Shown: piece by piece, positions 21,983-39,042 of the stretch | Numbering within the stretch: position 1 is the first letter of the stretch | Layout: the number at the start of each line of letters is the position of its first letter | NCBI GenBank assembly: GCA_035620695.1 | Contig: DASPGI010000126.1 | Coordinates: 509-64,508 of the forward strand | Length of the DNA: 64,000 bases | Direction of reading: 5' to 3' | Origin: Alphaproteobacteria bacterium | GTDB taxonomy: Bacteria; Pseudomonadota; Alphaproteobacteria; JAREAF01 | The notes under the pieces: generated by a model | What the model saw: the letters and a program-made list of their open reading frames with translations, nothing else | Databases searched by the model: none | Told to the model about the DNA's origin: nothing | Program-made: the position numbers and the translations under genes

Positions 21983-22966
21983 TTAGTCGAGCGCGACCAG
22001 GACTTGGCCGAGCTTGTTCCCGGCCTCGACCGCCTCATGGGCCGCCGCAATCTCGACGAGCGGAACGCGCGCGGCGATCGGGTGGGTGAGGGCGCCGGCA
22101 GCGAGCGCGGCGGTCAGATTTGCGATCGCGCGGCGCCGCGCTTCCGGCGTAAGGATGTAGACCAGCACCAGCCGCAGCGTCACCGCCTTGAACATCAGGG
22201 GATAGAAGGGCAGCGTCGGGGCCGGCGCGGCCATCGAAGCATAGGCGGCGATGGTGCCGTTCTCCTTGACGACAGCGAGGCTGGTTTCGAGATTGCCGCC
22301 GAACTCGACCTCGACGACGCGATCGACGCCCGCTCCGCCGCTTGCCTCCATTACAAGCTCGGCGACGCGCTCGCGCTTGTAGTCGATTACCAGATCCGCC
22401 CCTGCCTCGCGGCAGGCGGCGATGCTCTCCCGCCGCCCCGCCGTGGCGATCACTCTGGCGCCGCCCCACTTGGCGAGCTGGATCGCATAGTGCCCGACCG
22501 CTCCAGCGCCGCCGGTCACGAGCACGGTCTTGTCGGCAAGCGGCCCATCCGAGAAAAGGCATGCCTCCGCGGTCATCGCCGGAATGCCGAGGCAGGCGCC
22601 AGCCTCGAACGAGACGCCATCCGGCAACCGCACCGCCTGCGCGGCGGGCAGCGCGATCAGCTCAGCCGCCGTGCCCCAGGGGCGCCGCCATTGCCCGTTC
22701 CAGAGCCAGACCCGCTCCCCGATGCGGCGCGGCTCGACCCCGGGGCCGACCGCCTCGATCATGCCTGCGCCATCGCTGTGCGGCACGATCTTCGGGAAGG
22801 CCATGCCGCCGCGAGCCCCCGCCCGGCTTTTCACGTCCGATGGATTGACGCCGGAGACTTTCATCCGAACCAGCACCTCTCCGGGGCCAGGAGTGGGATC
22901 GGGCAGATCGCCGACCGTCAGAACCGACCGGGCGGGTCCGTTCCGTTCATACCAAGCCGCTTTCAT
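21983..22966 (-). CDS. NADPH:quinone oxidoreductase (MDR family)
   Basis: GVNPSD, PHSDGAG and GGAGAVG motifs. Confidence 0.9.
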   Translation of the reverse strand: MKAAWYERNGPARSVLTVGDLPDPTPGPGEVLVRMKVSGVNPSDVKSRAGARGGMAFPKIVPHSDGAGMIEAVGPGVEPRRIGERVWLWNGQWRRPWGTAAELIALPAAQAVRLPDGVSFEAGACLGIPAMTAEACLFSDGPLADKTVLVTGGAGAVGHYAIQLAKWGGARVIATAGRRESIAACREAGADLVIDYKRERVAELVMEASGGAGVDRVVEVEFGGNLETSLAVVKENGTIAAYASMAAPAPTLPFYPLMFKAVTLRLVLVYILTPEARRRAIANLTAALAAGALTHPIAARVPLVEIAAAHEAVEAGNKLGQVLVALD

Positions 22967-24064: not shown

Positions 24065-26491
24065 ATGGCCGCGGAGATTCCCTCAACGGCGCGCGTAGTG
24101 ATCGTCGGCGGCGGTGCCGTCGGCTGCAGCGCGCTCTATCACCTGGCGAAGCTCGGCTGGACCGATTGCGTGCTCCTGGAGAAGAACGAGCTCACCTCCG
24201 GCTCGACCTGGCATGCCGCCGGCAACTGTCCGAACTTCTCGACCAACTGGGGCATCATGAAGCTGCAGAACTATTCGACGCGGCTCTATGCCCGGCTCGG
24301 CGACGAAGTCGGCTATCCGATGGGTTACCACGTCACCGGCTCGATCCGGCTCGCCCATCATCGCAGCCGCATGGAGGAGTTCCACCACGTCACCGGCATG
24401 GCGCGCTATCAAGGCATCGAGTTTGCGATGCTGAGCCTGCGGGACATCAAGGAGCGCTATCCCTTCATCGAACTACACGATCTCGAGGGCGGCCTCTGGG
24501 ATGCGACAGACGGCGATGTCGACCCGGCGCAGCTCACCCAGGCGCTGGCCAAGGGCGCCCGTGACCTCGGCGCGCGCGTGATCCGCTTCTGCCCGGTCAT
24601 AGGTATCCGGCGTGAGAAGGGAGAATGGATCGTCTCGACGCCGCAAGGAGATATCCGTGCCGAGATCGTCGTCAACGCCGCCGGTTATCGCGCGCCCGAA
24701 GTCGGTGCCATGGTCGGCCGCGAGGTTCCTTCCGTCGCCATGTCGCACCAGTATCTGGTCACCGAGCAGATTTCGGAGTTGGCGGAGCGGAAAGAGAAGC
24801 TTCCGCTCCTACGCGACCCCGATGTCAGCTACTACCTGCGCCAGGAACGCCAGGGCCTTTTGCTCGGCCCTTATGAATGGGACTGCAAGGCGATGTGGCT
24901 CGACGGCGTCCCTGAGGATTTCTCCTTCCAGCTCTGGGCTGACGATCTCTCGCGCCTCGAGCGCTATATCGAGGATGCCTGCCGGCGCGTGCCGATCCTG
25001 GGCTCGGTCGGCATCACCCGCGTCATCAACGGACCCATCCCCTATACGCCTGACGGCAATCCCCTGATCGGCCCCGCGCCGGGCCTCGCGAATTTCTACG
25101 AAGCGTGCGTCTTCTCCTTCGGCATCGTGCAGGCCGGCGGCGCCGGCAAGGCGTTGGCCGAGTGGATCGTCGAGGGCGAGCCGGAATGGGATCTGTGGTC
25201 GCTCGATCCGCGCCGCTACACCGGCTATGTGACCAAGTCCTATGTCGCGGCGCAGGCGATCGAGCTTTACCAGAACGAATACGCGATCGGCTTTCCGACG
25301 CTGGAGCGCCAGGCCGGCCGTCCGGCCAAGACCTCGACCGTCTATGGTCTGCTCAAATCCAAGGGCGCGGTCATGGCGGCGCGCGGAGGCTGGGAACGCG
25401 CGGTATGGTTCCCGCGCCCGGGCGATGATCCGAAGGCGCCCGCGACTTTCCACCACGGCGCTTGGTTCGAGGCGGTCGGCGAGGAGTGCCGCGCGGTCCG
25501 GGACGCCGCAGGACTGCTCGATCTTCCCGGGATCTCGCGCTTCGAGGTGAGCGGGAAAGATGCCGCCGCCTGGCTCGACGGCTTGATCCTAACCCGGCTG
25601 CCGCGCGCGGGGCGCTGCGGCCTCGGCTATTTCCTCTCGCCGAAGGGCGGTGTGCTGGCGGAAGCATCAATCGCCGCGCTTGGGTCGGATCGCTATTGGG
25701 TGATGTCGGGCGCCACCGCCGAGTGGCATGACCGGGACTGGCTTACCGCGCGCCTGCCGAAGGAGGGCGGCGTGGCGCTCACAAATGTGACGCCTCATTA
25801 CGACACGCTCGTGTTGGCAGGACCGAAGTCGCGCGACATCCTCGCCCGAGTCACCGACGCCGATCTTTCCACCCCTGCCTTCCCCTGGATGACGTTGCGC
25901 GAACTCACGATCGGCTCGGCGCCGGTCACGGCGATGCGCATGACCGAAACCGGCGAGCTCGGCTACGAGTTGCATCCGCCGATCGAATATGCCGCCGCCG
26001 TCTATGAGGCGCTGATGGAGGCGGGCGTCGATCTGGGCCTCAAGGATTTCGGGCTCTACGCGCTCGATTCCTTGCGTCTGGAGAAGGGCTACCGCGCCTG
26101 GAAATCCGACCTGATGCTGGACCAGCCAGTGACGGCGGTCGGCATGGACCGCCTTTTGCGCCTCGACAAGCCGAATTTTGTCGGCCGCGAGGCGGTAACC
26201 TCCAACACCGGGCGCAATCCGAAGCTGGTCTCCGTTCTGCTGCTGGTCGATGCGGACAGCGCCGACGCGCTGCCTTTCGCAATCGTCCATGATGGCAAGA
26301 AACGGGTGGGGTTTGTCACCTCCGGCGGTTACGGCCACCGCATCGGCCGCTCGCTGGCGCTGGCCTTCGTCGAGCGCGCCGTTGCCAAGCCGGGGATACG
26401 TTTGCAGGTGGATATCTTCGGTGAGGCGCGCCCGGCCAGCATTGTCGATGGCGTACCTTACGATCCCGACAACAGCCGCATGAGGGTCTGA
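24065..26491 (+). CDS. GcvT-family FAD-dependent N-demethylase (dimethylglycine dehydrogenase-like)
   Basis: GGGAVG, TWHAAG covalent-FAD motif, YTPDGNP, THF-binding GELGYE and SLRLEKGY motifs. Confidence 0.9.
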   Translation: MAAEIPSTARVVIVGGGAVGCSALYHLAKLGWTDCVLLEKNELTSGSTWHAAGNCPNFSTNWGIMKLQNYSTRLYARLGDEVGYPMGYHVTGSIRLAHHRSRMEEFHHVTGMARYQGIEFAMLSLRDIKERYPFIELHDLEGGLWDATDGDVDPAQLTQALAKGARDLGARVIRFCPVIGIRREKGEWIVSTPQGDIRAEIVVNAAGYRAPEVGAMVGREVPSVAMSHQYLVTEQISELAERKEKLPLLRDPDVSYYLRQERQGLLLGPYEWDCKAMWLDGVPEDFSFQLWADDLSRLERYIEDACRRVPILGSVGITRVINGPIPYTPDGNPLIGPAPGLANFYEACVFSFGIVQAGGAGKALAEWIVEGEPEWDLWSLDPRRYTGYVTKSYVAAQAIELYQNEYAIGFPTLERQAGRPAKTSTVYGLLKSKGAVMAARGGWERAVWFPRPGDDPKAPATFHHGAWFEAVGEECRAVRDAAGLLDLPGISRFEVSGKDAAAWLDGLILTRLPRAGRCGLGYFLSPKGGVLAEASIAALGSDRYWVMSGATAEWHDRDWLTARLPKEGGVALTNVTPHYDTLVLAGPKSRDILARVTDADLSTPAFPWMTLRELTIGSAPVTAMRMTETGELGYELHPPIEYAAAVYEALMEAGVDLGLKDFGLYALDSLRLEKGYRAWKSDLMLDQPVTAVGMDRLLRLDKPNFVGREAVTSNTGRNPKLVSVLLLVDADSADALPFAIVHDGKKRVGFVTSGGYGHRIGRSLALAFVERAVAKPGIRLQVDIFGEARPASIVDGVPYDPDNSRMRV

Positions 26492-26495
26492 AGCC

Positions 26496-28958
26496 ATGGC
26501 CGAGATCACGCTGCCTAAGCACGCCCGTGCCGTCATCATCGGCGGTGGGGTGGTCGGCTGTTCCGTCGCCTACCACTTGGCCAAGCTCGGCTGGACCGAC
26601 ATCGTGCTCCTGGAGCGCAAGCAGCTCACTTGCGGCACCACCTGGCACGCCGCCGGTCTGATCGGCCAGCTCCGCGCCACGCAGAACCTGACCATGCTGG
26701 CGAAGTACTCGGCCGAGCTTTATGCCGGGCTGGAGGCGGAGACCGGCGTCGCCACCGGCTATCGCCAGGTTGGCTCCATCGGCGCGGCCTTGAGCCATGA
26801 GCGGCTGGAGGAATTCAAGCGCGGCGCCTCGATGGCGAAAACGTTCGGACTCGAGGTCGAGACGCTGGGGCCGGGCGAGATCAAGAGACGCTACCCGTTG
26901 CTCGAAACGAAAGACGTGGTCGGCGGCGTCTATCTCGCCAAGGACGGACAGGCCGACCCGGCCAACATCGCGCTGGCATTGGCCAAGGGCGCGCGCCAGA
27001 AGGGCGCCAGGATCTTCGAGGGCGTCAAGGTCACGGGCATTCTCACGGAGAAAGGTCGCGCGGTCGGCGTGGAGACCGCGCAAGGGCCGATCCGCGCCGA
27101 GCATGTCGTCAACTGCGCCGGCATGTGGGGGCGCGAGGTGGGGCGCATGGCGGGAGTCTCGGTGCCGCTCCAGGCGTGCGAGCATTTCTACATTGTCACC
27201 GAGCCCATCGCCGACCTGCCGCGCGGGCTTCCCGTGCTGCGCGTGCCGGACGAGCAGAGCTATTACAAGGAGGATGCCGGCAAGCTCCTCGTCGGATGCT
27301 TCGAGCTCGAGGCCAAGCCTTGGGCGCTCGAGGGCATACCGGAGGAGTTCTGCTTCGACCAGCTTCCCCCCGACATCGACCATTTCCAGCCGATCCTGGA
27401 GAAGGCGATGGGCCGGCTGCCGATCCTCGAAAAAGCCGGCATCCATACCTTCTTCAACGGGCCGGAGAGCTTTACTCCCGACGACAGATACCTTCTCGGC
27501 GAGGCGCCGGAGCTGAGGAATTTCTGGCTCGCCTGCGGCTTCAACTCGATCGGGATCCAGTCGGCGGGTGGAGCGGGAAAGGCGCTTGCGGAATGGATGC
27601 AAGCCGGCGAGCCGAGCATGGACCTGTGGGATGTCGACATCCGCCGCATGCAGCCCTTCCAAGGTAACCGTCGCTATCTGATCGCGCGGGCGCAGGAGGC
27701 CTTGGGCCTGCTCTATGCCGACCACTTCCCTTATCGTCAGGTGGTGACCGCGCGGGGCGTGCGCACCTCGCCCTTGCACGAGCGGCTGGCGGCGGCAGGC
27801 GCCTGCTTCGGCGAGGTCGCGGGCTGGGAACGCGCCAACTGGTTTGCACCGAAGGGCGTCGAGCCCGTCTACCGCTATAGCTGGAGGCGCCAGAACTGGT
27901 TCCACCACAGCGCAGCCGAGCATAAGGCGGTGCGCGAGGCGGTCGGGCTCTTCGACATGAGCTCCTTCGCCAAGTTCCGCGTCGAGGGCCGCGAAGCCGA
28001 GGCGGCGTTGCAACGCATTTGTGCAAACGATGTGGCGGTGGAGCCCGGCCGCATCGTCTACACGCAATGGCTGAACGAGCGCGGCGGGGTCGAGGCGGAT
28101 CTGACGGTGACGCGGCTTTCCGAAAGCGCCTATCTGGTGGTGACGGCCGCGGCTGGCGCCACGCGCGACCGCGCCTGGCTTGCGCGCCACATTCCGGAGG
28201 ATGCTCATTGCATTGTGACCGACGTCACCGCGGGCGAGGCGGTGATCGTGGTGATGGGACCGAATTCGCGGCTGCTGCTGCAGTCCTTGACCGACACCGA
28301 CCTCTCGAACGCAGCCTTCCCGTTTGGCACCGCCAGGGAGATCGAAATCGGGATGGGCCTCGCGCGCGCCCATCGCATCACCTATGTCGGCGAGCTAGGC
28401 TGGGAGCTGTACGTTCCCTCCGACATGGCGCGGCTTGTCTTCGATACCATCGTCGAGGCGGGGGCCGCGCATGGGCTCAAGCTCGCCGGCCTGCACGCGC
28501 TCAACTCGCTGCGCATCGAGAAGGCCTATCGGCATTTCGGGCACGACGTGACCGATGAGGATCATGTGCTCGAAGCGGGTCTGGGCTTCGCAGTGAAGCT
28601 CGACAAGCCGCGCGGGAAATTCGGCGACTTCATCGGGCGCGAGGCGGTCTTGCGCAAGAAGGAGCGGGGACTGAAAAGCCGGCTCCTGCAATTCAAGCTC
28701 ACCGAGCCTGAGCCGCTCCTTTATCACAACGAGCCGATATGGAGGGAGAAGCGCATTGTCGGCCAGGTGCGCTCCGGCGCCTACGGCCACACGCTGGGCG
28801 GCGCAATTGCGCTCGGCTACGTTGCGTGCGAGCCTGGCGAAACACCAGAGGACCTGGCCGGCCAGGCTTACGAGATGGAGATCGCCGGCGAGCGCTTCCC
28901 CGCGGTGGCCTCGGCACGGCCGATGTATGACCCGAAAGGGGAGAGAATCAGGGGGTAA
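26496..28958 (+). CDS. GcvT-family FAD-dependent N-demethylase (sarcosine dehydrogenase-like)
   Basis: GGGVVG, TWHAAG, ESFTPD, GELGWE and SLRIEKAY motifs. Confidence 0.9.
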   Translation: MAEITLPKHARAVIIGGGVVGCSVAYHLAKLGWTDIVLLERKQLTCGTTWHAAGLIGQLRATQNLTMLAKYSAELYAGLEAETGVATGYRQVGSIGAALSHERLEEFKRGASMAKTFGLEVETLGPGEIKRRYPLLETKDVVGGVYLAKDGQADPANIALALAKGARQKGARIFEGVKVTGILTEKGRAVGVETAQGPIRAEHVVNCAGMWGREVGRMAGVSVPLQACEHFYIVTEPIADLPRGLPVLRVPDEQSYYKEDAGKLLVGCFELEAKPWALEGIPEEFCFDQLPPDIDHFQPILEKAMGRLPILEKAGIHTFFNGPESFTPDDRYLLGEAPELRNFWLACGFNSIGIQSAGGAGKALAEWMQAGEPSMDLWDVDIRRMQPFQGNRRYLIARAQEALGLLYADHFPYRQVVTARGVRTSPLHERLAAAGACFGEVAGWERANWFAPKGVEPVYRYSWRRQNWFHHSAAEHKAVREAVGLFDMSSFAKFRVEGREAEAALQRICANDVAVEPGRIVYTQWLNERGGVEADLTVTRLSESAYLVVTAAAGATRDRAWLARHIPEDAHCIVTDVTAGEAVIVVMGPNSRLLLQSLTDTDLSNAAFPFGTAREIEIGMGLARAHRITYVGELGWELYVPSDMARLVFDTIVEAGAAHGLKLAGLHALNSLRIEKAYRHFGHDVTDEDHVLEAGLGFAVKLDKPRGKFGDFIGREAVLRKKERGLKSRLLQFKLTEPEPLLYHNEPIWREKRIVGQVRSGAYGHTLGGAIALGYVACEPGETPEDLAGQAYEMEIAGERFPAVASARPMYDPKGERIRG

Positions 28959-28960
28959 AC

Positions 28961-29022
28961 CCCCTCGCCCGCGCGAGCGGGAGAGGGGGGGACCCGTCGC
29001 GTCAGCGACGGGAGGGTGAGGG
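28961..29022. repeat. REP-like double-hairpin unit (orientation B)
   Basis: CCCCTCGCCC..GGGAGAGGG hairpin, second hairpin, then GGGTGAGGG; 5 bp from the DUF559 stop codon. Confidence 0.85.
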
Positions 29023-29027
29023 CCTGT

Positions 29028-29369
29028 TTACTTCCTCGATTGCTCGATCAAAGCGAGATGGATCGTCTCCAGAATGCCTTCCGTATTGGCGAGGACTTCT
29101 GGGTTCCAGAAGCGAAGAACACGATAGCCCCTGCCGGCGAGGTAGGTGTCCCGGCGCTTGTCATACTCGCTCCCATGCTGACCGCCATCCAGCTCGACCA
29201 CCAGCCTGGCTGCCCGGCAAGCGAAGTCCGCGATATAGGGGCCAATCGGAAGCTGCCGCACGAAACGCACGCCCAAGCCATGGTTGCGCAACTTCGACCA
29301 CAGGCGTCGTTCGGCCTCGGTTGGCTCTCGGCGCATCTGGCGAGCGCGGGTGATCAAGTCGCGAGGCAT
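29028..29369 (-). CDS. DUF559 (Vsr-like) endonuclease
   Basis: RARQMRREPTEAERRLW...RQ.PIGPYIADF.C...LVVELDGGQH...RD..L...GYRVLRFWN; alternative starts at 29393 and 29417. Confidence 0.9.
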   Translation of the reverse strand: MPRDLITRARQMRREPTEAERRLWSKLRNHGLGVRFVRQLPIGPYIADFACRAARLVVELDGGQHGSEYDKRRDTYLAGRGYRVLRFWNPEVLANTEGILETIHLALIEQSRK

Positions 29370-29410
29370 ACTCAAAAAAACGCAAACCACCATGCGTTGC
29401 AAGGGAACCG

Positions 29411-29533
29411 CCCTCACCCGGCTCGGGGCTCAACGCCCCTCGCCGACCTCTCCCGCGATGCGGGAGAGGTAATGGACCCCTCGCCCCGCGGATGCGGGGA
29501 GAGGGTGCCGAGCGCAAGCGAGGCGGGTGAGGG
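29411..29533. repeat. Inverted pair of REP-like units (A 29411-29469, B 29477-29533)
   Basis: CCCTCACCC...GACCTCTCCC..GGGAGAGG followed by its approximate reverse complement. Confidence 0.88.
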
Positions 29534-29536
29534 AAG

Positions 29537-30352
29537 TTACACCGCCACGGTCCGCCCGAGTGCGCGGATATGCACCTCGCGGTTGAACATCATCCCGGGC
29601 TTGCGGTCATAGCTGAAAAGCGCGATGAGGCGCGGGCGAGTGCCTTCGACTTCGGTCACGTGATGGAGCGAGCGGCGGCCGCGGAAGAGGGCGAGGCAGC
29701 CGGGCGTGATCGCGCCGGTGCGCTTCAGGCCCGGCTCGTCGTCCAGCATGCGGGCCACGCCTTGGTAATTCTCGTCGTCCTCCGAGCGGATGTTGGGCGC
29801 GTATTCGAACGCGCCGCCACGCTCGGCCGCTTGCAGGAGCAGACTTACCACGAAGTCGTTCTGGTCATAGTGCCAGGCATGCGTGTCGCCGGGCTGGAGC
29901 ACGGTAATGACACATGAGGCGAGCGGGTCGGCGCAGGTGTAAAGCTCTGCCTCTCCCGTCACCGCGGCGATGAAGCGCGTCAGCGCCGGACATTCATAAA
30001 GTGCCCGCGTGACCGAGTCGGCCGGCAGCAAATCGTAGGCAATCGCGCCCATCGAGGAACGGAACCGCCGCCGGCGCGCATGGCCCTCCGGGAGATCGGC
30101 ATCGCCCTTGTTGTTCTCGTAGGAATAGATGCTGTACCACTCGTCCCGGCGAAACGCGCGCGGGACAAGCGCCTCGGCCTCCGCCGCCATCGCCGCCAAG
30201 GCTTCGGAGGCGATGAAACCCGGGAACAGCGCAAGCCCGTCTCTCGCCAGCGCCGCGCGCCCTTCGGCGATCACCGCCTGCGCCTGTGACGATTCGAGGT
30301 CGTCGATCGGATAGCGCTTCAGATCGACCGCTGCGTAGCGGCTCGGGTTCAT
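29537..30352 (-). CDS. Fe(II)/2-oxoglutarate-dependent dioxygenase, BesD/HalD-like fold with HxD triad
   Basis: THAWHYD, GGAFEY, LFRGRRSLHHVT and R.IALFSY motifs; ATG 30352 overlaps the upstream stop. Confidence 0.75.
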   Translation of the reverse strand: MNPSRYAAVDLKRYPIDDLESSQAQAVIAEGRAALARDGLALFPGFIASEALAAMAAEAEALVPRAFRRDEWYSIYSYENNKGDADLPEGHARRRRFRSSMGAIAYDLLPADSVTRALYECPALTRFIAAVTGEAELYTCADPLASCVITVLQPGDTHAWHYDQNDFVVSLLLQAAERGGAFEYAPNIRSEDDENYQGVARMLDDEPGLKRTGAITPGCLALFRGRRSLHHVTEVEGTRPRLIALFSYDRKPGMMFNREVHIRALGRTVAV

Positions 30353-31308
30353 CTCTGCCTGCTCCGGCGGTCGCGGTCCGCTTTCAACCACCGGATCAAC
30401 TCTGCTCGCCGCACGGCCAGCAGCGCCTCGCCGTCGCGCTTCGTCCAGTCATAGATACCGCCGCCTTGCCCGATGCTCTTGCGTCCCTGCCGCACCAGCT
30501 CGCCGATGACGCCGGGCGGCTCGGGCGCCACGTCGAGCGTGGGCTGTAGGAACCGCGCGAAATTGTACATGGTCTCGAGCCCGCCGAGATCGGCCGATTC
30601 GATCGGCCCGGTGACGCCGAGCCGGCGGCCGATCGAGTTGCGGACCACGGCGTCGATGGCCTCGGCCGAGGCGACGCCCGAGGCCCAGAGAGCCCAGGCC
30701 TCGCGAAGCGCCGCGAACTGGATACGGTTGCCGATGAAGCCCGGCACCTCGCGGTCGATCACCACCGGCTCCTTGCCGGCCTCGCGTAGGACCTCACAAG
30801 TCCAGGTCACCACCTCGGGAGCCGTCGCAGGTCCGCCGCAGACTTCGACCAAAGGCAGAAGCTGCGGCGGATACCAGAAATGCGCGGCGATGACGCGCTC
30901 GGGGCGTCCGACCCTCTCTACCAGCTCGCTCGCCGGATGGCCGCTGGACGAAGCCAGCACGGCCGGCGGCGGGCAAATGGAATCGAGCCGCCCGAAGATC
31001 CCGCGCTTGAGCTCCATATTCTCCGGCACCGCCTCGACCACAAGCTGAGCGTCGCGGGCGTCCTCAAGCCTGGTTGAGATTTCCACCCGCGCCAGCGCCG
31101 CCTCGGCGTCGCTTTCCGCAATCAGTCCGTTCTCCCTGAAAAGAGCGAGACCCTCGGAGATCAGCGCCTTCGCGCGCTTCAAGCTGTCAGCGCTGCGGCC
31201 GATCAAACGCACCCGTTTACCGGACATGGCGAAGACCTGCGCCACGCCATGGCCGATGATGCCATTTCCGATCACGGCAACCGTATTGAGAGAGCGGGGG
31301 ACGGCCAT
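30349..31308 (-). CDS. 3-hydroxyacyl-CoA dehydrogenase family protein
   Basis: GNGIIGHG Rossmann motif, EAVPEN..LK, HFWYPP..LPLVE and PGFIGNRIQ motifs. Confidence 0.9.
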   Translation of the reverse strand: MAVPRSLNTVAVIGNGIIGHGVAQVFAMSGKRVRLIGRSADSLKRAKALISEGLALFRENGLIAESDAEAALARVEISTRLEDARDAQLVVEAVPENMELKRGIFGRLDSICPPPAVLASSSGHPASELVERVGRPERVIAAHFWYPPQLLPLVEVCGGPATAPEVVTWTCEVLREAGKEPVVIDREVPGFIGNRIQFAALREAWALWASGVASAEAIDAVVRNSIGRRLGVTGPIESADLGGLETMYNFARFLQPTLDVAPEPPGVIGELVRQGRKSIGQGGGIYDWTKRDGEALLAVRRAELIRWLKADRDRRSRQR

Positions 31309-31389
31309 GGGAACGTTCCTGAATAAGAGGGCGAGGAGTCTGGCGGGTCGCGCGCATGCTAGAATGCCGCAGCGAACGGGGGCATAGGA

Positions 31390-32178
31390 ATGGCCGCAAA
31401 GGGAGAATCGGCTGCGACGCTGCAAGAGCGGGCCTATCGCTGGGTGGAGCCGAGGGCCTGGCCCAAGGGCCTGTCGCCGTTCAACCGGGTGGTCCTGGTC
31501 CTGATTGTGGTGGCCAGCGCCTTGGCCGTGATCGAGACCGAGGACACCGTTGTCGCGCCCGCTCCGAAGCTTTTCGTCGGGTTGGACCTCGCCTTCGGCG
31601 TCATCTTCCTGATCGAGCTGGCCCTGCGTTTCTGGGTGGCGGGTGTCGATCCGCGCTGGGCTGGGCTTTCCGGACGGCTGCGCTGGCTCTTGCGGCCGAT
31701 TTCAATCATCGACCTGATTGCGATCTTGCCCTCCTTCCTTCTCCTCGGCGGCACCGATACCTTCATGCTGCGCTTGATCCGGCTGGCGCGCATTTTGCGG
31801 ATCGCCCGGCTCGGCCAGTTCAGCGAAGCGAGCCTGATGCTCTATGAGGCGATTCGTTCGCGCCGCTACGAGTTGACGGTCAGCTTGCTCGCGGCGGGCA
31901 TCGTCCTGATGGTCTCTGCAACCCTGCTCTACCTGATCGAGGGCGAGGTCCAGCCGCAGGCCTATGGCAGCATCCCGCGCGCGCTGTGGTGGAGCATCGT
32001 CACGCTGACCACGGTCGGATACGGCGACGTTTATCCGGTCACTCTGCTCGGGCGGATCTGTGGCGCGTTCACCGCGCTGGCTGGGATTGGGCTGATCGCG
32101 ATGCCGACCGGTATCCTGGCCGCCGCCTTCAGCGACGTCTTCCAGAAGCGCCGGACCCAGAAGCACGGCGGCGAGTGA
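31390..32178 (+). CDS. Voltage-gated potassium channel-like ion transporter (6TM)
   Basis: S4 RLIRLARILRIARL and selectivity filter TTVGYGD. Confidence 0.92.
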   Translation: MAAKGESAATLQERAYRWVEPRAWPKGLSPFNRVVLVLIVVASALAVIETEDTVVAPAPKLFVGLDLAFGVIFLIELALRFWVAGVDPRWAGLSGRLRWLLRPISIIDLIAILPSFLLLGGTDTFMLRLIRLARILRIARLGQFSEASLMLYEAIRSRRYELTVSLLAAGIVLMVSATLLYLIEGEVQPQAYGSIPRALWWSIVTLTTVGYGDVYPVTLLGRICGAFTALAGIGLIAMPTGILAAAFSDVFQKRRTQKHGGE

Positions 32179-32182
32179 CGGT

Positions 32183-33379
32183 TCAGCCAGCGGAATTCCA
32201 CCGCTCCCCCGCTTCAGGCAACGGATATTTGAGGCCGCTGGCGCAGTTGAACAGCATCACGCGTTCGTCTCGCGAGACCCGGTTCTCCGCGAGTGCTTGT
32301 TTCCAAGCGGCGTAAGTGGCGGCGCCTTCGGGTGACAGCAATAGGCCCTCGGCTTTCGCCACCTCGGCGCGTGCGGCGAGGATGGCCTGGTCGGTCACGG
32401 CGATCGCGAAGCCTCCGCTTTCGCGAACCGCCCTCAGGATCAGAAAATCGCCAATCGCGGCCGGCACGCGGATGCCGGCGGCGACGGTCGCAGCATTCCG
32501 CCAGAGCGCAGCATGTTCAACACCATCATCGAACGCCTTGACGATCGGCGCGCAGCCCGCCGCCTGCACGGCGATCATCCGGGGGCGGTGCGTGTCGATC
32601 CAGCCGAGGCGGCCAAGTTCCGCGAAAGCCTTCCACATGCCGATAAGGCCGGTGCCGCCGCCGGTCGGATAGAAGATCGCATCGGGCAGCTTCCAATCGA
32701 GTTGGTCGGCGAGCTCCAGCCCCATCGTCTTCTTCCCCTCGATGCGATAGGGCTCCTTGAGCGTCGACATGTCGAACCAGCCCATCCGCTCCGTGCCCTC
32801 GGCGACCAGGCGGCCGCAGTCGTTGATGAGGCCATTGACCCGCCACACCGTGGCGCCTTGTGCGGCGATCTCGCGGATGTTCACCTCGGGCGTGTCCTCG
32901 GGACAGAAGACGAAGCACTCTATTCCTGCCCGCGCGGCATAAGCGGCAAGCGCGGCCCCCGCATTGCCGTTGGTCGGGATCGCCACGCGCCGGAGTCCGA
33001 ATCCCTGGGCCATGGTTACCGCCATTGCTAGCCCGCGCGCCTTGAAGGAGCCGGTCGGCAGCCTTCCTTCGTCCTTCACCGTAAGCGCGCGCGCGCCCGC
33101 ATCGGCGGCGAGCCTCGTCAGCGGGATCAGCGGCGTCTGCACCTCGCCTAGCGAGACAATCGCGTCCGGATCGGAGACGGGAAGCAGCGGGAGATAGCGC
33201 CACATCCCCGGTGGATGCTGTCGCAGGCGGTCGCGATCGATCGCGCGACCCAGCGCCTCGAGGTCATAGCGCACGAGCAAAGGTTTCCCCGCGCGCGACA
33301 GGTTGTAGGGTCGGCCGGCTTCATACCGTTCACCAGTGGCCGAGCATTCGAGATGGGAGAGGAATGATGGGTGGTGCAT
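32183..33379 (-). CDS. Threonine synthase-like PLP enzyme (short type)
   Basis: PTGSFKARG PLP lysine, TNGNAG, EGKKTMG, PTGGGTG and SPEGAA motifs. Confidence 0.85.
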   Translation of the reverse strand: MHHPSFLSHLECSATGERYEAGRPYNLSRAGKPLLVRYDLEALGRAIDRDRLRQHPPGMWRYLPLLPVSDPDAIVSLGEVQTPLIPLTRLAADAGARALTVKDEGRLPTGSFKARGLAMAVTMAQGFGLRRVAIPTNGNAGAALAAYAARAGIECFVFCPEDTPEVNIREIAAQGATVWRVNGLINDCGRLVAEGTERMGWFDMSTLKEPYRIEGKKTMGLELADQLDWKLPDAIFYPTGGGTGLIGMWKAFAELGRLGWIDTHRPRMIAVQAAGCAPIVKAFDDGVEHAALWRNAATVAAGIRVPAAIGDFLILRAVRESGGFAIAVTDQAILAARAEVAKAEGLLLSPEGAATYAAWKQALAENRVSRDERVMLFNCASGLKYPLPEAGERWNSAG

Positions 33380-33430
33380 CGTCAGTCTGAAGGAATCCTT
33401 GTGCGTGATTGGAACGGTCTCGTCACCCCA

Positions 33431-33559
33431 CCCTCACCCAGCTCGGGCTCACGCCCTCGCTGACCTCTCCCGCAAGCGGGAGAGGTGAAAAACCCCTCGC
33501 CCCGCGGAGCGACGCGGAGCGGGGAGAGGGCGGCCGAGCGTAAGCGAGGCGGGTGAGGG
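33431..33559. repeat. Inverted pair of REP-like units (A 33431-33485, B 33493-33559)
   Basis: Same family and A-B arrangement as 29411-29533. Confidence 0.88.
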
Positions 33560-33606
33560 GTGATAGCGCAATGTGCGATTCAGTCTCGTGAAGCGCACCT
33601 CACGCC

Positions 33607-34830
33607 TCACTCCTCCGCAAGTTCGCGCAGCACTTCGGCCAGCACCTCAGCGCCGGCGGCGAGGTGCTCCGGCTCGACGGCTTCGGCCTCGTTGTGGCTG
33701 ACCCCGCCGCGGCAGGGAATGAAGATCATCGCCGTCGGGCACAAGCCCGCCATGAACTTGGCGTCGTGGGTGGCGCCGGAGAGGATGTCCTTTGGTTCGA
33801 GTCCCAACCGCCGCGTCGCGCGGCGCACGCGCTCGACCATGGCGGGAGCGAAAACCACCGGGCTTGAATCCAGGATTTGCCGGACCTCGGCCGTGCAGGG
33901 CGAAGCCTCGCTGCGGCAGATCTCGGCAATGCCATGGGTGATGCGATCGAGCAAGACGGCATCGGGATGGCGCAGGTCGATCGTGAACTCGACACGGGCC
34001 GGCACGGTATTGGGCGAGCCCGGCGCCAGCATGAATCTGCCGATGGTGAAGCGGGTGATCTCGGAGGGATCCGCGACCAGCTTGTAAAGCGCGCCGACAA
34101 TGCGGTGAGTGGTCGCGAAGGCATCCTTGCGGCGCGAGGCGGGAGTGGTGCCCGCATGCGCCTCCTCGCCCTCGACGGTGATCGCGAACTGGCGCAGACC
34201 TTGAATTCCGGTGACGGCGCCGATAACGCGGCCCTCCGCCTCCAGCACCGGGCCTTGCTCGATATGCGCCTCTACATAGGCGAAGGCGGCGCGGCCAAGC
34301 GGCCTTGGACCCGCCCCGGACAGAGCCGCGCGCTGCACCGCCAACGCCGCGCCGAAGGTGGCGCCGCTCGCATCGGTTGCGTTCAATGCATCCTCAAGCG
34401 TTATTGCGCCCGCATGCACGGCCGAGCCCATGGTCGCAGGTTGGAAGCGTGCGCCCTCCTCATCGGCCCAGACCACGAGCTCGATCGGCCGCCGCGTGGC
34501 GATGTCCTTCTCGATGAACCCCTCCAACACCTCCAGCCCGGCCAGCACGCCGTAGATTCCATCGTACTTGCCGCCAGTCGGCTGGGTGTCGAGATGCGAG
34601 CCGGTCCAGAGGGGTAAGAGATCTGGCTCGCGCCCCTCGCGTCGCAGGAACAGATTGCCGACCGGATCGAGCGTGGCCGCCAAGCCCAGTCGCTCGCTCC
34701 AGTTGATGAGGAGGGCCCGCGCCGCCGTATCCTCGGGCGAGAGCGCCAAGCGGCACACGCCGCCGCGGCCGGTCGCTCCGATCTGGGCCATCTTTTCGTG
34801 CCTGTGCCAGAGCCGGTCCGCGCTCACCAT
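33607..34830 (-). CDS. M20 family Zn-dependent amidohydrolase (N-carbamoylase/allantoate amidohydrolase-like)
   Basis: GSHLDTQP.GG.YDG, DEEG.RF, EAHIEQG, HAGT and SGATHDA motifs. Confidence 0.9.
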   Translation of the reverse strand: MVSADRLWHRHEKMAQIGATGRGGVCRLALSPEDTAARALLINWSERLGLAATLDPVGNLFLRREGREPDLLPLWTGSHLDTQPTGGKYDGIYGVLAGLEVLEGFIEKDIATRRPIELVVWADEEGARFQPATMGSAVHAGAITLEDALNATDASGATFGAALAVQRAALSGAGPRPLGRAAFAYVEAHIEQGPVLEAEGRVIGAVTGIQGLRQFAITVEGEEAHAGTTPASRRKDAFATTHRIVGALYKLVADPSEITRFTIGRFMLAPGSPNTVPARVEFTIDLRHPDAVLLDRITHGIAEICRSEASPCTAEVRQILDSSPVVFAPAMVERVRRATRRLGLEPKDILSGATHDAKFMAGLCPTAMIFIPCRGGVSHNEAEAVEPEHLAAGAEVLAEVLRELAEE

Positions 34831-35016
34831 GCAAGCGACCCTAGGGGACTATCTTCCGCCGCGGAATAAAATATGGACCAGGCTCATATATGCGCAACTT
34901 CATAACATTGGGATCGATTATTCTCCGAAGATGCAAGGAACTTTGTTGTCTATACAATTCATCACTCATATATTCCAGCAAGTTTGTCCTGTTCGTGCCG
35001 AGGGATGGAAAGAGCC

Positions 35017-37224
35017 ATGGCGCGCGGTTCCATTTGGACCATCACCTCCGGTCTGTCGGCGTTCGACCAGCCCGCGCGGCGGCCTGCAAAGAAGGGCCCT
35101 GCTGCGACATCTTCTGCCGGCGAAGAGGTCGTCGTACAGCAAGTTCCGGGCAGGGTCGTCGTCGGCACCGGTGGCAATGATACCCTCTATGGTGGCGTCA
35201 ATGACGATACGTTGTTCGGGCAAAGTGGCAATGACACGCTGTTCGGATTAGCCGGCAACGACACTTTGTACGGCGGGGCAGGAGGGGACACGTTCTACGG
35301 CGGCGCCGGCATCGACCTAGTCAGCTACAGCAGTTTAACGCAAGCCATCACCGTTGCCCTCGACGGGAGCCCCGCGTCCGGGGCAGCCGAGGTCCGAAAC
35401 GATCGGTTATTCCAGATCGAGCATTTGATCGGGTCGCAAGCAGGCGATCTCCTCATCGGCAGTTTCAATGCCGAAACCCTCGACGGTCATCTCGGCAACG
35501 ACACGCTGTATGGCGGGGCCAGCGATGACAGACTCGATGGCGGCCTTGGCAACGATACGCTCTTTGGCGGGGCGGGCGCAGATGCGCTGTTCGGTGGCGA
35601 AGGCATCGATATTGCCGACTACTCCGCTTCCGCCGGAGTGACTGTGAACCTTGCCACTGGCATGGGAACCGGCGGTGCGCTGGGCGACACCTTCGCTTCC
35701 ATCGAAGCTTTGATCGGCTCGGGCACCGACGGCGATGTGCTCGTTGGCGACGCCAACGCCAACACTCTCATCGGCAATGGCGGCAACGATACACTGATAG
35801 GGGGGTCCGGAGGCGACACTCTCTATGGCGGGGCGGGCGTCGATGCCGTGTCCTTTGCGGCATCTGCCGCGGGCGTCAGCGTGGATCTGGGCAGTGGACT
35901 CGCCGTCGGCGGCGATGCCCAGGGCGATGTTTATTCGAGCATCGAGGTGCTTATCGGGTCGGCCTTCGATGACATCTTGATCGGCCAATCGCCCGTAAGC
36001 GATACCGTCTACGGGGGCGACGGCAATGACACCGTGGGCGGAAATGGCCTTATCGGCGGCGACCCGAATGGCGACCTCCTTTACGGAGGCGCTGGTTTGG
36101 ACACGGTTTCCTACTCTGGCGGCGGACCCGGAATAACCATCTCGCTTGATGGCAACCCAGGTCTAAGTGGAAACGCCCTCAATGATCGACTGTTCGAGAT
36201 CGAGGCGCTGTTCGGCTCGTTGAATGACGACCTGCTGGGCGCCAGCGGGGCTCTCGGCTTCAATGTGACGATTGCCGGTCTGACCGGGAACGACACCATC
36301 AACGGCGGGCTCGGCAATGACTTGCTGCTGGGTGGCGACGGCAACGACCGCCTAACCGATCTAACTGGCGCCGATTCGATCTTCGGCGGCAACGGCAACG
36401 ACACCGTGCAATTCAGCAACCAATCCTTCATTCTCGATGGCGGCATCGGCACCGACACGCTCCTCGGCACCGCGGGCGCCGACCGCATCGATTTGAGCGC
36501 GGCGCGGTTCGCCGGCGGCGGTGACGGCAACGCTTTTACCGCGAACAGCCGCGCCGGCGCCTTCGAGGTGTTCGAGCTCGGCGACGGCAACGACGTGCTG
36601 TTCTATTCGTTCCCCAGCTTCGATAACGTAGCTTCGACCGTCTATGGGGGCTTGGGCGACGACCAGATCGCGATGCTCGACGGCGGTGCCGCGCTGGGCA
36701 GCAGCCAAACGCTCTATGGCGGCGACGGCGTCGACCGGATCTGGGCCGGCTGGTTCGGCAGCGGCGGCAGCTCGACGGTGTTCGGCGGCGCCGGCGACGA
36801 TTTCCTCTATGCCGGCGCCGGGGCGGCGGGGCCCGGAGGCTTCGACGACACGCTCTATGGCGGAGACGGGTTCGACAACTATTACTGGTCGCCCAACAAT
36901 GGCGGGTTCGGCACCGACCTTATCTTCGATTCCGCCCCGGGCGGAAACGGGTTGGTCATCTTCGGCGGCAACACCGCCCCCGCCTCCGGCTTCCCGGACA
37001 CAGGCGCTCCCGACAATGATCCGGTCAACGGTCAAGTCAACCTTGTCGATCTCGGCGGCGGCATGTTCAGGATCCAGGACAAGAACGATCCGACCGACTC
37101 GATCACCTTCCGCGGCGGCGACATCACCGTGATCAATTTGCACAGCCGCCCCGGCGGCCAAGGGACAGGTGAAAACTTCATCTATACCTGGGACGGAAGC
37201 GGCTGGGTGGATCAGAACGGCTGA
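35017..37224 (+). CDS. RTX-type (hemolysin-type Ca-binding) repeat protein
   Basis: Many GGxGNDTLYGG/DTLFG nonapeptide repeats over about 600 aa, no Sec signal, acidic Gly-rich C-terminus; no catalytic domain recognised. Confidence 0.88.
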   Translation: MARGSIWTITSGLSAFDQPARRPAKKGPAATSSAGEEVVVQQVPGRVVVGTGGNDTLYGGVNDDTLFGQSGNDTLFGLAGNDTLYGGAGGDTFYGGAGIDLVSYSSLTQAITVALDGSPASGAAEVRNDRLFQIEHLIGSQAGDLLIGSFNAETLDGHLGNDTLYGGASDDRLDGGLGNDTLFGGAGADALFGGEGIDIADYSASAGVTVNLATGMGTGGALGDTFASIEALIGSGTDGDVLVGDANANTLIGNGGNDTLIGGSGGDTLYGGAGVDAVSFAASAAGVSVDLGSGLAVGGDAQGDVYSSIEVLIGSAFDDILIGQSPVSDTVYGGDGNDTVGGNGLIGGDPNGDLLYGGAGLDTVSYSGGGPGITISLDGNPGLSGNALNDRLFEIEALFGSLNDDLLGASGALGFNVTIAGLTGNDTINGGLGNDLLLGGDGNDRLTDLTGADSIFGGNGNDTVQFSNQSFILDGGIGTDTLLGTAGADRIDLSAARFAGGGDGNAFTANSRAGAFEVFELGDGNDVLFYSFPSFDNVASTVYGGLGDDQIAMLDGGAALGSSQTLYGGDGVDRIWAGWFGSGGSSTVFGGAGDDFLYAGAGAAGPGGFDDTLYGGDGFDNYYWSPNNGGFGTDLIFDSAPGGNGLVIFGGNTAPASGFPDTGAPDNDPVNGQVNLVDLGGGMFRIQDKNDPTDSITFRGGDITVINLHSRPGGQGTGENFIYTWDGSGWVDQNG

Positions 37225-37230
37225 TAAGGA

Positions 37231-37367
37231 CCCTCGCCCCACGGTAGTGGGGAGAGGGCGGCCGAGCGTGAGCCGAGGCGGGTGAGGGAGGGGTGCTTGC
37301 GCCTCGCATCACCCTCACCCGCTCGGGGCTGACTGCCCCTCGCGACCTCTCCCGCGAACGGGAGAGG
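37231..37367. repeat. Inverted pair of REP-like units (B 37231-37288, A 37312-37367)
   Basis: B-A orientation with a 23-bp spacer, between convergent genes. Confidence 0.88.
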
Positions 37368-37375
37368 TGATTACT

Positions 37376-38170
37376 TCAATCCATCACCTCGCCGCGATCG
37401 ACATGCAGGCTTTGGCCGGTGATGTTGCGCGCTGCATCCGAGGCGAGAAACAGATAAGCGTCGATCAGATCGGTCGGTTCGAGCATTCCGGGGAAGGCCT
37501 GGCGCGACAGGATTTCCTCGGCCATCGCCTCCTCCGAAAGGCCGCGGCGTTGTGCTTCGTCGGCGAGGCTCTTCAGCGCCGGCTCGGTGCGGATCCACCC
37601 TGGGCACACTGCATTCACGGAGATGCCGCGCGGGCCCAACTCCTGTGCGAGCGAGCGCATGAAGCCGAGATTGGCGTGCTTAGAGGCGCAATAGGCGCTG
37701 AAGAAGCCGACGGCGGTTTTGCTCCAGACCGAGGCGGTGATGACGATCCGGCTGCCCGGACCCATGCGCGCCACCGCCTCGCGGGCGACGTAGTAGGTGC
37801 CGAGCACATTGACCTCGACGATACGGCGAAACAACGCCTCGGCCTCGGCGCCCGGCGCGTCGATCGGCGTCATGCGCTCGATACCTGCATTGGCGATCAG
37901 CACATCGAGCCGATCGATTCCGGAGAAGGCGCCGGCCACCGCTTCGCGATCGGCGATGTCGCAGAGAAGGCCCCGCACTTGGCGTCCGCCGGCCATCCCG
38001 CTCAACGCTCCGGCGGCCTCCTCGATCTTTGGATCGTCGGCGAGGATCGTCAGATCCGCACCGGCGCGCGCAAATCCGCTTGCCACGCCGTAGCCAATGC
38101 CACGGCTGCCGCCGGTGACCAGAACGCTCTCGCCCTCGAAGCTCCAGCGACCCGCTCCCGCCTGTGCCAT
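37376..38170 (-). CDS. SDR family oxidoreductase
   Basis: TGGSRGIG, NAG, YCASK and AVCPG motifs. Confidence 0.92.
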   Translation of the reverse strand: MAQAGAGRWSFEGESVLVTGGSRGIGYGVASGFARAGADLTILADDPKIEEAAGALSGMAGGRQVRGLLCDIADREAVAGAFSGIDRLDVLIANAGIERMTPIDAPGAEAEALFRRIVEVNVLGTYYVAREAVARMGPGSRIVITASVWSKTAVGFFSAYCASKHANLGFMRSLAQELGPRGISVNAVCPGWIRTEPALKSLADEAQRRGLSEEAMAEEILSRQAFPGMLEPTDLIDAYLFLASDAARNITGQSLHVDRGEVMD

Positions 38171-38280
38171 GAACCTGGACCCCGATCTTGATTGACGTCG
38201 AGGGAGCTCTCCCGCCGGCCCCCGCTTTCGGCGATAAATGCTAGGGGCCGGAGCGGCCCGGCACAATGGAGGGAAGGGGC

Positions 38281-39042
38281 ATGCAGACGACGCGCTTTCA
38301 GGGACGCATCGGCATCGTTACCGGCGCGGCGTCGGGCATCGGCCTTGCAACCGCCCGGCGGCTGGCGCGGGAGGGCGCAAGGCTGGTCCTTGCGGATATT
38401 CAAGACGCCGATGCGATCGCCGAGGAACTTGCCGCCGAAGGCGCCGAGTCCGTCTTCCACCGCACCGATGTTGCTGTTGCCTCCGAGTGGACGAGGCTGA
38501 CCCAGTCGACCATTGCGAGGTTCGGTGGATTGGACTTCCTGATCAACAATGCCGGAATCCCTTTGGCCAAGACCGTGCTCGAGACGTCCGAGGCGGAGTG
38601 GGACCGTGTGATCGCAGTCAATCTGAAGAGCGTTTTTCTGGCTTGCCGGGCCGCTGTTCCGTTCCTGCGCGGACGGCCCGGCGCCGCGATCGTTAATGTC
38701 GCATCGGAACTGGGGTTGGTCGGTCATGCCACCGCTGCGGCCTATTGCGCTTCCAAGGGCGGAGTGGTCCAACTCACACGCGCCATGGCCATAGACCATG
38801 CCGCGGACGGCATTCGCATCAATGCTGTCTGCCCTGGGCCGGTGGATACCCCGCTCCTCGACGCGTTCAATCAGGCTGAGCAGGGACGCACTGCCGTCCT
38901 CGAGAACGAAGCGGTCCCTTTGCTTGGTCGAATCGGCCGCCCGGAGGAAGTGGCCGCGGCCATCCTTTTCCTTGCCTCGGAGGATGCGGGCTTCATCACC
39001 GGATCAGCCTTGCTGGTCGATGGCGGATTGACGGCGCGTTAA
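38281..39042 (+). CDS. SDR family oxidoreductase
   Basis: TGAASGIG, NNAG, YCASK and NAVCPG motifs; GGAGG RBS. Confidence 0.92.
   Translation: MQTTRFQGRIGIVTGAASGIGLATARRLAREGARLVLADIQDADAIAEELAAEGAESVFHRTDVAVASEWTRLTQSTIARFGGLDFLINNAGIPLAKTVLETSEAEWDRVIAVNLKSVFLACRAAVPFLRGRPGAAIVNVASELGLVGHATAAAYCASKGGVVQLTRAMAIDHAADGIRINAVCPGPVDTPLLDAFNQAEQGRTAVLENEAVPLLGRIGRPEEVAAAILFLASEDAGFITGSALLVDGGLTAR

Follow-up and report, generated by a model that had tools for sequence, protein, structure and literature searches.

A strong candidate for the missing partner enzyme of BoxC/TMECO-type repeats: a DUF559 nuclease encoded within a conserved gene-plus-repeat cassette

A small gene for a nuclease of the DUF559 family lies between two inverted copies of a short intergenic repeat in a 64-kb stretch of contig DASPGI010000126.1 from a soil alphaproteobacterium (the window, within which repeats were counted). 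Each repeat unit is a hairpin followed by a short G-rich tag. We found that the DUF559 gene and its two inward-facing units form a conserved cassette, which is inherited and moved as one block, and that this combination of gene and repeat recurs across many bacterial phyla. Judged by their sequence, the units appear to follow the logic of the purine-motif intrastrand-triplex repeats known as TMECO or BoxC, and the DUF559 nuclease is a strong candidate for the missing partner enzyme of this repeat type.

BoxC/TMECO-type repeats are abundant and linked to local genome instability, and have had neither a known origin nor a known enzyme; if the candidate is right, repeats that have been orphans for about 30 years gain a partner. 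The link between DUF559 and the repeats is specific and strongly non-random, and it joins two open questions—which enzyme serves the repeats, and what DUF559 does—into one. No paper linking DUF559 to these repeats was found in the literature, and a literature search on RIME yielded nothing specific to the sequence.

Association of DUF559 genes with the repeat units

Units were called with a self-written, structure-based detector, which requires a hairpin with a purine arm and, after it, a G-rich tag. Species-representative genomes were scanned with an alignment of DUF559 homologues, which gave 80 loci of at most about 20 kb each (1.28 Mb in total), all from other species and covering Alpha-, Beta- and Gammaproteobacteria, Binataceae, Dehalococcoidia, Thermodesulfobacteriota and others. 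Across these loci, 191 of 308 units were located within 200–250 bp of the DUF559 gene. A unit in sense orientation was found upstream of the gene at 58 of 77 loci and one in antisense orientation downstream at 63 of 77, with units on both sides at 51 of 74. Intergenic regions adjacent to DUF559 carried a unit in 79% of cases, compared with 4.2% of the 573 other intergenic regions (odds ratio 86, p 6e-73); these statistics, like those for Escherichia coli given below, ignore shared ancestry. Among other small open reading frames (ORFs), one in 243 was flanked on both sides.

An earlier reading of the window made from its letters alone (the sequence-only reading) had proposed that the DUF559 gene and the repeat family belong together in a REPtron-like arrangement, and had fixed in advance the finding that would speak against this, namely DUF559 genes flanked no more often than other small genes. 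With 79% set against 4.2%, and 51/74 against 1/243 bracketed on both sides, that outcome is therefore clearly contradicted, and the proposal passes the comparison. The sequence-only reading is supported in part, its further idea of the nuclease as mobiliser or homing factor of the repeats being a hypothesis. Milman et al. 2023 name DUF559 as one of the families with an excess of predicted inversion targets (odds ratio 14.3), which fits the presence of flanking inverted repeats.

Anatomy of the units and their likeness to BoxC/TMECO

Seven units at three loci had been listed for the window, in the orders B-[DUF559]-A-B, A-B and B-[23 bp]-A. All seven were recovered at the same coordinates and in the same orders, and are given here together with the gene and the stretches between them:

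28961..29023, + strand: unit U1, subtype B′; hairpin CCCCTCGCCCGC/GCGGGAGAGGGG with a G·A opposition, spacer hairpin CCCGTCGC/GCGACGGG, G-tag GGGTGAGGG
29028..29369, − strand: DUF559 gene, 113 amino acids (aa), coordinates including the stop codon, likely start ATG at 29369; Vsr-like PD-(D/E)XK nuclease
29370..29410, − strand: 41 nt between the upstream G-tag and the ATG, with a terminator-like hairpin plus T-run and a TTGCAA box
29411..29469, − strand: unit U2, subtype A, directly upstream of DUF559; perfect hairpin CCTCTCCCGC/GCGGGAGAGG, spacer hairpin GGGGC/GCCCC, tag GGGTGAGGG toward the gene
29477..29533, + strand: unit U3, subtype B; pairs with U2 as a tags-outward A-B dimer, the stop of a HalD-like gene being 3 nt away
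33431..33487, − strand: unit U4, subtype A, gene-less
33495..33559, + strand: unit U5, subtype B with a longer loop, gene-less; tags-outward A-B dimer with U4
37231..37288, + strand: unit U6, subtype B, gene-less; begins 6 nt past the stop of an RTX-repeat gene
37289..37311, no strand: spacer of the gene-less B-A pair, 23 bp between inward-facing tags; cassette-like geometry, no gene
37312..37367, − strand: unit U7, subtype A, gene-less; 8 nt between its end and the stop of an SDR gene

Read from hairpin to tag, a unit consists of a pyrimidine arm, a loop, a purine arm (GGGAGAGG), a spacer of 19–27 nt with a small hairpin of its own, and the tag GGGTGAGGG. The A and B forms had been taken for mere reverse complements of each other; in this direction of reading they turn out to be two variants of one unit type, CCTCTCCC-(loop)-GGGAGAGG in A units and CCCTCGCCCC-(loop)-GGGGAGAGGG in B units. 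Every B-type hairpin contains the identical G·A opposition CCCTCGCCCC/GGGGAGAGGG, as do the TMECO copies of E. coli. This conserved opposition could be a recognition point for a Vsr-like mismatch nickase.

DNA folds predict two hairpins per unit and leave the tag free, with z-scores of −3 to −5 for six of the units. U1 folds at −25.6 kcal/mol (z −4.4) with its tag unpaired and U2 at −22.7 kcal/mol (z −5.1), while the U2-U3 dimer (29411–29533) reaches −51 kcal/mol (z −7.1); the single-unit fold of U5 is no better than that of shuffled sequences (z −0.6). The repeat that had been termed a "double hairpin" is more aptly seen as a hairpin with a putative mirror tag, a triplex-type unit of the TMECO/BoxC class. 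ViennaRNA, which produced the folds, cannot model triplexes, and a triplex in the window units is deduced from their sequence.

At the cassette the order is hairpin and G-tag, 41 nt, gene, 5 nt, C-tag and hairpin, with both tags facing the gene. The tags also point inward at the third locus, around the 23 bp, and outward at the second locus and in the U2-U3 pair. U1 is positioned 4–5 nt past the DUF559 stop codon and 2–3 nt past that of the DAO/GCV_T (dimethylglycine-dehydrogenase-like, DMGDH-like) gene, which, like the HalD-like gene on the other side, converges on the cassette, so that DUF559 is a free-standing ORF between convergent genes. All copies had been said to abut stop codons; of the six outer edges, four do so, at a distance of 2–8 nt. 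The exception is the second locus, where the nearest start codon is 51 nt away and the nearest stop 47 nt.

Within the 41-nt stretch, the terminator-like hairpin and T-run occupy 29379–29398 on the minus strand, directly before the start codon, and the TTGCAA box is found 8 nt past the upstream tag. Two homologous loci have TTGCAC (L081) and TTGCCA (L082) 4–9 nt past their tags. Hairpin and box ahead of the ATG might indicate that the transcript is leaderless, or that the gene is insulated from the HalD-like gene upstream of it; a scan for the sigma-70 consensus found no promoter.

When run on the full 64 kb, the detector called only the window units, and it called none in five shuffles; the long-looped U5 was not called separately, two overlaps across units being called in its place. 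An nhmmer profile built from the seven units matched the same seven in the 64 kb (E 8e-12 to 2e-6). The tag GGGTGAGGG occurs nine times in the window against 0.71 expected. Its occurrences at 22084 and 62691 were rejected as units, the sequence around both being ordinary. All seven units are contained in the 8.4 kb around DUF559 (28961–37367), and the remaining 55.6 kb has none. We roughly estimate that such tight clustering of three loci would arise by chance in about 5% of cases.

Arrangements without the gene are also present in the other species. Far from DUF559 we counted 27 gene-less tags-inward pairs, with 11–86 bp between G-tag and C-tag (L046, L033, L022, L056 and others), and L046 has two such pairs with similar 31-bp spacers. 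A single hairpin with a tag on each side was seen in 26 cases in other loci.

Intrastrand-triplex repeats go by the names TMECO, BoxC and PIT, and are also associated with work by Hoyne in 2000. In Holder et al. 2015 (PMC4666352), TMECO is given the form CCCTCNCCC N3-6 GGGNGAGGG N3 GGGNGAGGG and 3610 copies are tallied over 262 genomes of Proteobacteria; formation of an intrastrand triplex in vitro was shown in that study for the E. coli motif only. The window units possess the C-rich arm, loop and G-rich arm of this motif (CCCTCNCCC/GGGNGAGGG), and share with it the arm and tag sequences CCCTCNCCC, GGGNGAGGG and GGGNGAGGG in the order C-rich arm, G-rich arm and G-rich tag, the last a putative mirror of the purine arm. 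They also share the G·A opposition and the intergenic, multi-copy occurrence with inverted pairs. Across the 80 loci, units with asymmetric arms have a tag that mirrors the purine arm, as a purine-motif triplex (G·G, A·A or T·A) would require, in 97 cases and one that repeats it directly in 19 (binomial p 9e-14, relatedness ignored). Unlike the TMECO repeats, the window units are found in an alphaproteobacterium, and whereas mobility functions were never found near TMECO (Holder et al. 2015, PMC4666352), the units of both the window and E. coli ycjD flank a DUF559 gene.

The cassette among relatives and in Escherichia coli

Homologues that are 77–78% identical to the window protein (P0004 and P0007; loci L081 and L082–87) share both end units with it, A upstream and B′ downstream, but not its neighbours: some adjoin a gene for DNA ligase, and others lie between genes for an MFS transporter and NTP_transf_6. 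In the alignment of these cassettes, similarity spans from outer hairpin edge to outer hairpin edge and ends there. Synonymous sites are saturated (proportion of synonymous differences, pS, 0.73–0.80), yet the end units remain about 73–84% identical by our own count on the cassette alignment. The B′ spacer hairpin reads CCCGTCGC/GCGACGGG in the window and CCCGGCGC/GCGCCGGG in L081 and L082, a compensatory change, and the frames of several homologues extend into the unit, ending ...PSPSRR. The 80 loci fall into 56 neighbour contexts, some of which are common to several genera (e.g. in the Sphingomonadales), so both long vertical stability and relocation have taken place.

Insertion polymorphism among relatives, which would be expected of a mobile repeat on the sequence-only reading, does exist. 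Junctions of relatives were obtained from a metagenome scan with the HalD-like neighbour. At the orthologous convergent HalD-like/DMGDH-like junction, one relative (L089) has an unrelated spacer of 190 bp that lacks both unit and gene, another (L091) has a B′ unit and G-tag but not the gene, and the window has the full B-A-gene-B′ arrangement. Two metagenome contigs of the Joint Genome Institute (JGI), L084 and L086, come from near-identical strains, encode an identical DUF559 protein and differ by a block of units of about 150 bp downstream of the gene, made up of a degenerate A unit, a second copy of the 3′ end of the gene and a B′ unit. The outer edges show no direct repeats in the cassette alignment that would indicate target-site duplications, and with neither such duplications nor a transposase gene the cassette does not resemble an insertion sequence (IS) or a miniature inverted-repeat transposable element (MITE).

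Logan contigs from eight soil metagenome runs were compared with the three window loci. U7 was matched by many other contigs, and one further pair, of the form B-13 bp-A, was found. Empty-site forms or joints at the three loci were not present in the contigs of these eight runs, and as such assemblies break at repeats, the contigs show only that the units are multi-copy.

E. coli K-12 offers a second, distant view of the arrangement, with ycjD and about 20 TMECO copies coexisting in one genome. After the ycjD gene (L088 5040–5840; NC_000913.3 1351039–1351839) come a CCCTCTCCC hairpin, about 45 nt that duplicate the 3′ end of ycjD and, some 170 bp downstream, a complete BoxC/TMECO unit. Triplex-type units thus follow ycjD as they follow the window gene; the difference is that in K-12 they are found downstream only and in sense orientation, with another palindrome upstream.

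Natural strains without ycjD exist: the gene is present in 3378 of 5426 complete E. coli genomes and absent from 38%. The table of Holder et al. gives 1–2 TMECO copies in B2 strains, 11 in O157 and 19–30 in K-12, B1 and relatives (PMC4666352). We searched with a query that combined ycjD and TMECO and sampled 60 genomes evenly, finding 13–30 matched places in the 37 genomes with ycjD and 1–17 in the 23 without it, the latter range comprising 12–17 in O157/O55 types and 1–4 in E2348/69-like genomes. The lower number in ycjD-less genomes fits repeat decay after loss of the gene, but it tracks the phylogroups. At the ycjD site itself, ycjD-less genomes carry TetR and RND efflux genes and no TMECO, so this is not a clean insertion site and was ruled out as an empty one.

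The nuclease and how it may act on the units

The ORF between the repeats had been called a Vsr-like PD-(D/E)xK nuclease of the DUF559 family, and both profile and fold comparisons agree. PF04480 (DUF559) matched with 125.8 bits against a cut-off of 20.6 (E 8.7e-37, profile positions 4–107 of 109). The only further Pfam match was MTES_1575, below its gathering score, and none of the Pfam matches is a transposase domain, of the HUH/Y1 (IS200/IS605-like) kind or otherwise. Family and size agree with E. coli YcjD and with Neisseria gonorrhoeae NGO0050 (PDB 3HRL; DUF559, function unassigned): 3HRL was matched at E 1.6e-21, and the YcjD profile NF007294 with 99 bits, which is below the equivalog cut-off of 218 bits. 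An AlphaFold2 model (pLDDT 90) has the four-stranded sheet, flanking helices and acidic and histidine active-site residues of the Vsr-like fold; in Foldseek it came closest to 3HRL (TM-score 0.75), followed by I-Bth0305I, a homing endonuclease matched in its catalytic domain (E 1.3e-4, TM-score 0.68), and then by Vsr (1VSR, E 0.03).

Across 35 homologues, D48, E59, D61 and H65 do not vary, and conservation is at least 90% at E20 and D70. The window protein retains the predicted catalytic spacing (E, D, D-x3-H-x4-D), which equals that of the residues proposed for Caulobacter VsrA, a DUF559 protein that in vivo causes DNA damage and an SOS response and is dependent on the methylation state set by ScmA (PMC12907096). 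The reading frame is intact and under purifying selection (ratio of nonsynonymous to synonymous substitution rates, dN/dS, 0.055–0.11). DUF559 is a very large family of about 25,000 clusters at 50% identity; an exact look-up of the window protein returned no database record, and PADLOC gave a weak match to a DpdF fragment and no known defence system.

The comparisons show the association, the anatomy of the units, purifying selection on the protein, conserved end units and presence or absence at an orthologous site; that the nuclease binds, cleaves and propagates the units is what we infer. On balance we think it probable that DUF559 is their cognate enzyme, recognising the folded unit or the tag pair and breaking the DNA, with repair then copying units and sometimes the gene. 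The protein would be an active Vsr-like nicking or cutting nuclease. Its target may be the folded unit, as an extruded hairpin or a triplex and perhaps at the conserved G·A opposition, or alternatively the palindromic tag pair GGGTGAGGG...CCCTCACCC; the DNA would be broken at whichever of the two it is. Recombinational repair off another copy would keep the units alike, and would occasionally place new copies at other intergenic sites, be they units, unit dimers or the gene together with its end units, in which case the gene-less A-B and B-A pairs would be non-autonomous products. Should its substrate be folded triplex or mismatched hairpin DNA, DUF559 would also offer a structure-specific DNA tool of a new kind.

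Two known systems are instructive for this proposal. Combinations of REP/REPIN repeats with RAYT genes are reportedly called "REPtrons", a term associated with work by Nunvar in 2010, Bertels and Rainey in 2011 and Ton-Hoang in 2012. The cassette is like them in that a short palindromic repeat stands in inverted copies on either side of a single small gene of nuclease type, in that the repeat is also found gene-less and intergenic, often as inverted dimers, and in that the gene is mostly vertically inherited. The window itself displays U1(+)-gene-U2(−), with A-type copies at two further loci, and to that extent the label "REPtron-like" is apt. It does not extend to the enzyme, which is a Vsr-like PD-(D/E)XK nuclease unrelated to the HUH/Y1 transposases, nor to the repeat, which is a hairpin with a putative mirror tag and in many genomes has only two copies, at the gene.

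The second system is the EDxHD homing endonuclease I-Bth0305I, with which the window protein shares the Vsr-like catalytic fold and which cuts a pseudopalindromic site as a homodimer (PMC3239194); in the window, the tag pair GGGTGAGGG...CCCTCACCC would serve as a target of this kind. I-Bth0305I has several domains and is encoded in a phage group I intron, whereas the window protein is a core of about 110 aa that stands free between repeats. Neither an intron or intein nor extra DNA-binding domains accompany the 113-aa ORF, and an Rfam search of 27000–39000 at a permissive threshold gave no match, either to an intron or to the repeat units.

Several observations weigh against DUF559 as the cognate enzyme of the units. 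In 55 of the 80 loci units are present solely at the gene, with no dispersed copies within 20 kb, so many cassettes come without visible spread of the unit, and synteny groups such as the nine Sphingomonadales loci at one site speak of long vertical stability and not of mobility. Within the window, the B′ unit at the gene is unlike the dispersed B units, from which it differs in its spacer hairpin. The third locus does have the geometry of the nuclease locus without its gene, as the sequence-only reading had noted, but its 23-bp spacer is not significantly similar to the cassette interior (9 of 23 positions identical at the same offset, p ~0.3), and there is therefore no evidence of a deleted gene in it. 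The likeness to TMECO is also imperfect: in place of a second G-rich stretch after a 3-nt loop, the window units have the tag GGGTGAGGG after 19–27 nt that contain a hairpin of their own, and because the window purine arm is mirror-symmetric, triplex (mirror) and direct-repeat readings are indistinguishable there. In E. coli the correlation between ycjD and TMECO follows phylogroups and so represents few independent events, and units persist in the ycjD-less genomes of O157/O55 type.

In a wider version of the proposal, selfish or semi-domesticated DNA of a pan-bacterial class would have its dedicated enzymes in the stand-alone DUF559 proteins. As Vsr-like nickases these would recognise a unit folded as a hairpin plus third strand, or as a mismatched hairpin, and would maintain and spread such units by break-induced copying. 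Such a class has not yet been described in print, and we put it forward tentatively, as more doubtful than not.

Part of the evidence listed above would also suit a host function. DUF559 might have been domesticated as a structure-specific nuclease for repair, which would remove or process DNA in hairpin or triplex form where such repeats stall replication, with the gene-side units as its own control elements (operator, insulator or terminator) and the dispersed repeats spread otherwise. The long vertical stability of the cassette at one chromosomal site within families, the strong purifying selection and the many loci with only two units, at the gene, would all follow naturally, as would the terminator-like hairpin directly before the ATG; TMECO sites are moreover tied to local instability (PMC4666352). 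What this leaves unexplained is that close homologues have the same end units in unrelated neighbourhoods. An inverted bracket with tags toward the gene on both sides is furthermore typical of element ends, not of a promoter and a terminator, and no regulator is known. We regard a host function as unlikely.

Hitch-hiking, in which DUF559 would be a small free-standing selfish or homing-type gene that settles at recombination-prone repeats without recognising them specifically, is an improbable account. That the nearest characterised fold relative is a homing endonuclease, that the gene is found in many different contexts and that units exist without the gene are all in keeping with it; the strict polarity is not, with a sense unit upstream, an antisense unit downstream and tags inward, nor is the fact that the same motif accompanies the gene across phyla. 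The end units are also conserved beyond neutral expectation, and most loci have no other units to land in. A Vsr-type repair role, as a T:G mismatch nickase working with a solitary cytosine methyltransferase as proposed for Caulobacter VsrA and with the repeats irrelevant, can draw on the DUF559 domain and ScmA dependence of VsrA (PMC12907096) and on the shared catalytic spacing, but is very improbable given that no methyltransferase gene adjoins DUF559 in the window, that the Vsr profile TIGR00632 reaches 23 bits against a cut-off of 97.85 and that the odds ratio of 86 for flanking units would be left unaccounted for.

Two further repeat features of the window were noted. The RTX-repeat gene upstream of U6 encodes a 746-aa RTX calcium-binding nonapeptide-repeat protein (34984–37224), which accounts for the direct-repeat families D1–D3, D5 and D7. 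A 134-nt direct repeat of 75% identity is located at 24089–24222 and 26523–26656, with the second copy at the start of the DAO/GCV_T gene, and suggests a paralogous gene slightly upstream of that gene.

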